From a virus (taxonomy: Duplodnaviria > Heunggongvirae > Uroviricota > Caudoviricetes), in IMG/VR virus record IMGVR_UViG_2562617113_000010: a stretch of 12,174 bases of DNA, one strand, 5' to 3'. Within the stretch, counting starts at the first letter, position 1. The number at the start of each line of letters is the position of its first letter. Below the pieces are notes generated by a model that saw only the letters and a program-made list of their open reading frames with translations, had not been told where the DNA came from and made no database searches. The translations under genes were made by a program, and so were the position numbers. Shown here one piece after another: positions 10,610 through 10,635 of the stretch.

Positions 10610-10635
10610 TTTTCATAAACGTTGGTTTGGGAGAA
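10610..10635. other. 26-bp invertase crossover site (gix/hix/cix-like), proximal end of the invertible segment
   Basis: TTTTCATAAACG TT GGTTTGGGAGAA: two imperfect 12-bp inverted half-sites around a 2-bp core, matching the recalled family pattern (TTnTCnnAAACC nn GGTTTnnGAnAA). Lies about 55 bp upstream of the invertase start and within the reading frame of the silent fibre cassette. Confidence 0.7.

Follow-up and report, generated by a model that had tools for sequence, protein, structure and literature searches.

Two crossover sites and two cassettes: an invertible tail-fibre segment at the right end of a P2-like prophage

Introduction

At this locus, the question is where the second crossover site of a probable DNA inversion system lies. 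The 12,174-nucleotide stretch of DNA analysed here (IMG/VR virus record IMGVR_UViG_2562617113_000010; Caudoviricetes), hereafter the window, contains a 26-bp crossover-like site next to an invertase gene. The original prediction, made from this stretch alone, placed the partner of the site beyond the window and left two outcomes to be distinguished, a simple two-site switch and a multi-site shufflon. Shufflons have more than two recombination sites around several cassettes, and those of the R64 type additionally require a tyrosine recombinase. In this study we located the partner in a near-identical public genome, counted the sites in the whole prophage and compared both orientations of the segment among related prophages. 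The site in the window very probably belongs to a two-site Pin/Cin/Gin-type invertible tail-fibre segment of a P2-like prophage.

Results

The site is the 26-mer TTTTCATAAACGTTGGTTTGGGAGAA at window positions 10610–10635, 55 bp upstream of the start codon of the invertase gene, and its central crossover dinucleotide TT lies at 10622–10623 (Table 1). At up to three mismatches it has a single match in the whole window, and none of 200 shuffles matched. It is the exact reverse complement (26/26) of the pinE-proximal site of e14 in Escherichia coli K-12. For an independent chance test, a matrix was trained solely on the two annotated P1 cix sites. On this matrix the site scored 21.1 bits, and the runner-up position in the window scored 12.7; among 500 shuffles the mean maximum was 10.5 (sd 1.9) and the highest score 18.2. 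Given that 21.1 bits exceeds the shuffle maximum of 18.2, the site is real rather than a chance match, and it is a genuine Pin/Cin/Gin-type crossover site.

Downstream of this site, the remainder of the window (10636–12174) yielded no match to AAACCNNGGTTT at up to two mismatches and no half-site of 9 bits or more with a half-site weight matrix. Both searches bear out the original prediction that no AAACC-nn-GGTTT-like motif occurs there, and the uniqueness that it claimed for the 26-mer at 10610–10635 holds at up to three mismatches. Its estimate of about 111 codons after the site is likewise correct, as 10636–10968 comprises 111 codons with the stop included.

The distal site was read from the near-identical public record of E. 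coli A38 (NZ_CP028738.1) and not from the window. The identity between the two was 99.975% in a global alignment of the whole window, with three 1-bp indels, and 100% over window positions 9900–12174; the last 3282 bases are exact, and within them window position x corresponds to x+2101 in L001, the extended A38 locus. The top inverted repeat in L001 has arms at 12711–12745 and 14276–14310, each of 35 nt and 86% complementary. The proximal site (L001 12711–12736) has the centre TT, and the distal site TTCTCCCAAACCAAGGTATGCGAGAA, equivalent to window positions 12184–12209, has the centre AA. The distal repeat arm begins at the very next base after the window, and the distance from the window end to the start of the distal site is 10 bp.

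The central dinucleotide, the inner half-sites and nine more inward bases form a perfect 23-nt inverted repeat. The two sites differ at 5 of 26 positions, every one of them in the outer half-sites, and both score 21 to 23 bits on the matrix trained on the P1 cix sites. Hence a pair of imperfectly palindromic 26-bp sites in opposed orientation and with the same central dinucleotide, as expected of the Din (Hin/Gin/Cin/Pin) family, is present, the second site being taken from the A38 record. The invertible segment measures 1576 bp with both central dinucleotides included (about 1.58 kb), and 1548 bp separate the two 26-bp sites. It should be noted that a search of L001 for the reverse complement of the proximal site at up to three mismatches found the original site alone, because the partner carries five mismatches, all in the outer half-site; the partner was found as an inverted repeat instead. 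What the two sites have in common is confined to the inner half-site and the crossover dinucleotide, which is why a reverse-complement search that tolerates few mismatches misses the partner.

These results support the original prediction in placing the partner outside the window and more than 1.5 kb away, but not in its expectation of a segment reaching well past the visible part, as the partner site starts 10 bp after the last base of the window in the A38 record. The further cassettes that it considered possible are not there either, the segment containing just the two cassettes visible in the window, and the few-mismatch reverse-complement search that it proposed fails at up to three mismatches with a partner that differs at 5 of 26 positions.

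Table 1. Features of the invertible tail-fibre locus (window coordinates unless stated otherwise).
Feature	Coordinates	Strand or orientation	Sequence or evidence
Serine DNA invertase, 188 aa, ATG at 10554	9988–10554	−	Pfam Resolvase E=2.3e-53, HTH_7 E=1.5e-15
Putative Fis-dependent recombinational enhancer, 5′ end of invertase gene	10465–10536	−	assigned by position only
Invertase-proximal 26-bp crossover site	10610–10635	+	TTTTCATAAACG TT GGTTTGGGAGAA
Silent tail-fibre C-terminal cassette, 110 aa + stop	10636–10968	+	Pfam Gp53-like_C E=1.1e-11
Tail-fibre assembly chaperone of silent cassette	10969–11388	+	Pfam Caudo_TAP E=1.4e-22; tail fiber assembly protein in A38
Tail-fibre assembly chaperone of expressed cassette	11360–11803	−	Pfam Caudo_TAP E=3.4e-29; annotated, L001 13461–13904
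C-terminal variable cassette joined to H in this orientation	11824–12174, runs off window	−	Pfam Gp53-like_C E=1.2e-9
Distal 26-bp site	L001 14285–14310	inverted relative to proximal site	TTCTCCCAAACC AA GGTATGCGAGAA

The tail-fibre gene H is a continuous 473-aa open reading frame on the minus strand (L001 15346–13925) that reads through the distal site, and its constant N-terminal 353 residues end in LLAYLGLGEAAK at the junction that the site encodes. Simulated inversion between the central dinucleotides yielded an in-frame H of 464 aa that ends in the cassette at 10636–10968. The swapping of in-frame fibre C-termini, each with its own chaperone gene, is characteristic of Din-type systems and is found here in the 473- and 464-aa forms of H, in which Gp53-like_C is followed by Caudo_TAP.

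In the RefSeq annotation of A38, H (L001 13925–15346, equivalent to window 11824–13245, minus strand) is split despite its single uninterrupted 473-aa open reading frame. The two pieces are "phage tail protein, incomplete, missing C-terminus" (L001 14957–15346) and "gp53-like domain-containing protein" (13925–14335), with 620 bp left unannotated between them. H is split likewise in the annotation of strain PEC148 and is whole in that of strain MFDS1016424, where the segment has the other orientation. Automatic annotation splits an intact tail-fibre gene at such switches. On the plus strand, window positions 10582–10968, which include the silent cassette, are called as a free-standing 128-aa gene in both the open reading frame list and RefSeq, because an ATG at 10582, outside the segment, is in frame with the silent cassette. 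Rather than a protein expressed on its own, this call probably reflects an artefact of annotation.

The inverted state occurs in nature. The simulated inverted sequence, with about 420 bp of flank per side, matched strain MFDS1016424 as a single piece, at 94% identity over its full length (100% coverage). When A38 and MFDS1016424 were compared directly, the flanks were colinear and the middle (L001 12720–14301) was inverted, with breakpoints inside both sites. H of MFDS1016424 is annotated as 464 aa; it ends in the cassette that the window has in the silent position, and its junction is exactly as predicted. Both orientations are found among related prophages, with A38 and strain Santai one way and MFDS1016424 the other. 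Inversion in P2-like E. coli prophages has been demonstrated experimentally (PMC4272514). The only point in favour of a 26-mer that merely looks like a recombination site is that it is single in the window. Set against 21.1 bits on the P1-only matrix with a shuffle maximum of 18.2, an adjoining Pin-family invertase, a partner that shares a 23-nt perfect inverted repeat and a natural inversion with breakpoints exactly at the two sites, the probability of such a chance motif is practically negligible. The original prediction had named the lack of any second site in the prophage as the sign of a chance match; the second site exists, within that perfect inverted repeat.

Half-site matrices applied to L001 and L007, which together span the A38 prophage in full from ogr to int, found exactly two sites, which score 21 to 34 bits, and the third-best position reaches at most 12.7 bits. 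Exactly two sites are also present in each related locus examined, i.e., e14 in K-12, P1, ET245, PEC148, MFDS1016424 and Santai. The distal site of locus L008 carries one substitution and was recovered by reading the sequence and with the weight matrix. The system is a two-site, two-cassette switch and not a shufflon, which settles the site count left to be made by the original prediction. A multi-inversion shufflon of the R64 Rci or p15B Min type was rejected, the whole prophage having two sites and the recombinase being a serine invertase. Taken alone, the window would be compatible with more sites and cassettes past its end, comparable to p15B Min or to the three-repeat, four-variant P2-like prophage of enteropathogenic E. 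coli (EPEC), and multi-site versions are known in P2-like prophages (PMC4272514). Such an arrangement is nevertheless very improbable here, since the entire A38 prophage has exactly two sites with no third position above 12.7 bits and just the constant part of H follows the distal site.

The invertase can be aligned over its whole length with the Gin structures 3UJ3 and 4M6F (E about 1e-92), and the catalytic Ser is conserved within GYVRVSTNDQ in the Gin alignment. Its identity is 83.5% to e14 PinE, 77.1% to P1 Cin and about 78% to crystallised Gin. The 188-aa protein has the features of a Din-family invertase, i.e., a length of about 190 aa, a Ser near residue 9–10 and a C-terminal HTH. The open reading frame is intact, with 98.9% identity to the invertases of relatives, and its transcription points away from the invertible segment.

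Systems of the Din family have a cis-acting enhancer of recombination to which Fis binds, usually towards the 5′ end of the invertase gene, and a putative counterpart is present here. Window positions 10465–10536 are identical to the annotated P1 cin enhancer (NC_005856 31678–31749) at 56 of 72 positions, and one strict Fis-like 15-mer (window 10470–10484) lies at the same position as in the P1 enhancer. As this stretch is coding sequence, however, its conservation is weak evidence, and the enhancer assignment is suggestive only. A terminator-like hairpin with a T-run behind it was noticed on the minus strand at window positions 10574–10593, in the interval that separates the crossover site from the ATG of the invertase gene. 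The scan found 3 terminator-like sites, compared to 1.8 expected by chance; on this weak evidence, the hairpin could keep transcription that runs out of the fibre operon from entering the invertase gene. The promoter scan found 5 candidates, compared to 4.1 expected from shuffles, and none for the invertase.

The window represents the right end of a P2-like prophage adjoining ybjL (779–2464), and the insertion has ybjL on one flank and rcdA on the other. The order on the minus strand is ogr, D, U, the tape-measure gene (4588–7665), E/E′, the tube gene (8149–8664) and the sheath gene, followed by the invertase gene. The sole differences between the window and the A38 RefSeq record are 1-bp indels at 85, 3258/3259 and 8892/8893. 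The first and second affect short homopolymer runs (A5 in the window vs. A4 in RefSeq, and C4 vs. C5, respectively), and the third is a single T in the window vs. TT. Errors of sequencing in either assembly or in both could account for them, as could true divergence between isolates. As a consequence of the indels, the sheath open reading frame is truncated in the window (343 aa, 8814–9845) and complete in RefSeq (390 aa), whereas gene D is intact in the window (366 aa, 3009–4109) and carries a frameshift flag in RefSeq.

The prophage may be defective, and its host-range role may therefore be vestigial. If so, the locus could be a frozen relic, with sites and invertase in place and a switch that is inoperative and without consequence. 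The shortened sheath gene of the window and the frameshifted gene D of the RefSeq record would fit this explanation, each being either a real defect or a homopolymer error. We consider it unlikely, given the intact invertase with 98.9% identity to its relatives, the identical central dinucleotides and inner half-sites retained by both sites, the occurrence of relatives in both orientations and the finding that the segment of the cryptic element e14 still inverts (PMC4272514).

The segment is also found in other prophage backgrounds. In E. coli ET245 (L002 2994–4593), the same 1.58-kb module as at window positions 10617–12174 is present with 99.7% identity in a lambdoid-looking prophage by yciI-tonB, with a DUF1983 J-like protein upstream. 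In ET245 the module is attached to another constant fibre part, and the invertase on the opposite side is only 52.7% identical. The homology with ET245 begins at window position 10617, inside the crossover site; thus, what is transferred from one prophage to another appears to be a module bounded by the crossover sites. A third prophage background is an e14-like element of E. coli O157:H16 Santai (L009 2005–3604), in which the same two cassettes adjoin pinE, with ymfQ and a baseplate J gene as neighbours; they are about 91.5% identical to those of the window and have the same orientation. The P2-like prophage of E. coli PEC148 (L003 3686–4812) is near-identical, its invertase being 98.9% identical and its proximal site the same. 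It keeps the expressed cassette, and its silent cassette is different and longer (a 175-aa tail protein plus a 200-aa chaperone). Judging from these sequences, cassettes are evidently swapped singly as well as in pairs. The 1.58-kb module thus travels as a unit between unrelated prophage types.

Discussion

The sequences establish the pair of sites, the reading frames, the invertase family and the occurrence of both orientations among related prophages; active flipping in this strain and an effect on host range are predicted from what is known of the family. In the proposed mechanism, the minus-strand invertase would bind the proximal site and its inverted partner inside H, 10 bp past the window end, most likely with the assistance of host Fis on an enhancer in the invertase's own 5′ coding region, as family knowledge suggests. 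It would cut both sites at the identical central dinucleotide (TT/AA) and flip the segment of about 1.58 kb. The constant 353 residues of H would accordingly be joined either to the 119-aa cassette at 11824–12174, as in the present state, or to the 110-aa cassette at 10636–10968, and the chaperone gene downstream of each cassette would come into the transcribed orientation with it. The predicted outcome is two alternative receptor-binding tips and, with them, two host ranges for the phage progeny.

A different role of the switch may also be considered, one that benefits the host cell and not the phage. PinQ was recently reported to invert the P segment of e14 and thereby to create StfE2, which blocks T2 adsorption (PMC12529663). 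By analogy, a flip in the lysogen could yield a fibre-tip protein that masks a surface receptor, although we regard this as improbable for the present prophage. The flip might also be driven in trans by the invertase of another prophage, which is conceivable because the same module adjoins the 52.7%-identical invertase in ET245.

Under the preferred interpretation, a phage host-range switch, the system is of an ordinary and already-known type among tail-fibre switches. Its value lies mainly in correct annotation, and the question with which we started is closed: there are two sites and two cassettes, with nothing hidden beyond the window.

Comparison with Known Systems

The P segment of e14 with PinE in K-12 has, like the system described here, two sites, two opposed fibre C-terminal cassettes and two chaperone genes. 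The e14 segment is about 1.8 kb, compared to 1.58 kb here, and its cassette sequences differ from those here, although the same cassette pair adjoins pinE in the e14-like element of Santai. While e14 is a lambdoid remnant, the switch described here is carried, between H and the sheath gene, by a P2-like myovirus prophage that looks complete.

The C segment of P1 with Cin and the G segment of Mu with Gin share the architecture of 12-bp half-sites around a 2-bp crossover, with inner half-sites alike and outer half-sites different. In both, the site lies in frame at the junction between the constant and variable parts of the fibre, and the invertases are 77–78% identical to the one described here. 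In the P1 record, cixL and cixR are annotated together with the points of crossover and an enhancer within the 5′ region of cin. Compared one half-site at a time, the two sites here correspond to cixL and cixR, and the architecture of the proximal site is that of the annotated cixL. In Mu, gin is transcribed away from the segment, as is the invertase gene here. In P1, by contrast, cin points towards the segment and cixL overlaps the 3′ end of cin, whereas the site here is upstream of the invertase gene. The segment is also shorter, 1.58 kb compared to 4.2 kb in P1 and 3 kb in Mu, and, unlike in P1 and Mu, only about 110–120 fibre residues are exchanged.

Counterparts in prophage type are the P2-like prophages of EPEC E2348/69, which were found by read patterns and PCR to carry such switches, with one two-variant locus and one three-repeat, four-variant locus (Goldberg et al., 2014; PMC4272514). 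Likened by their published description, these loci agree with the present one in both prophage type and switch type, but one of them has three repeats, while the prophage described here has two sites.
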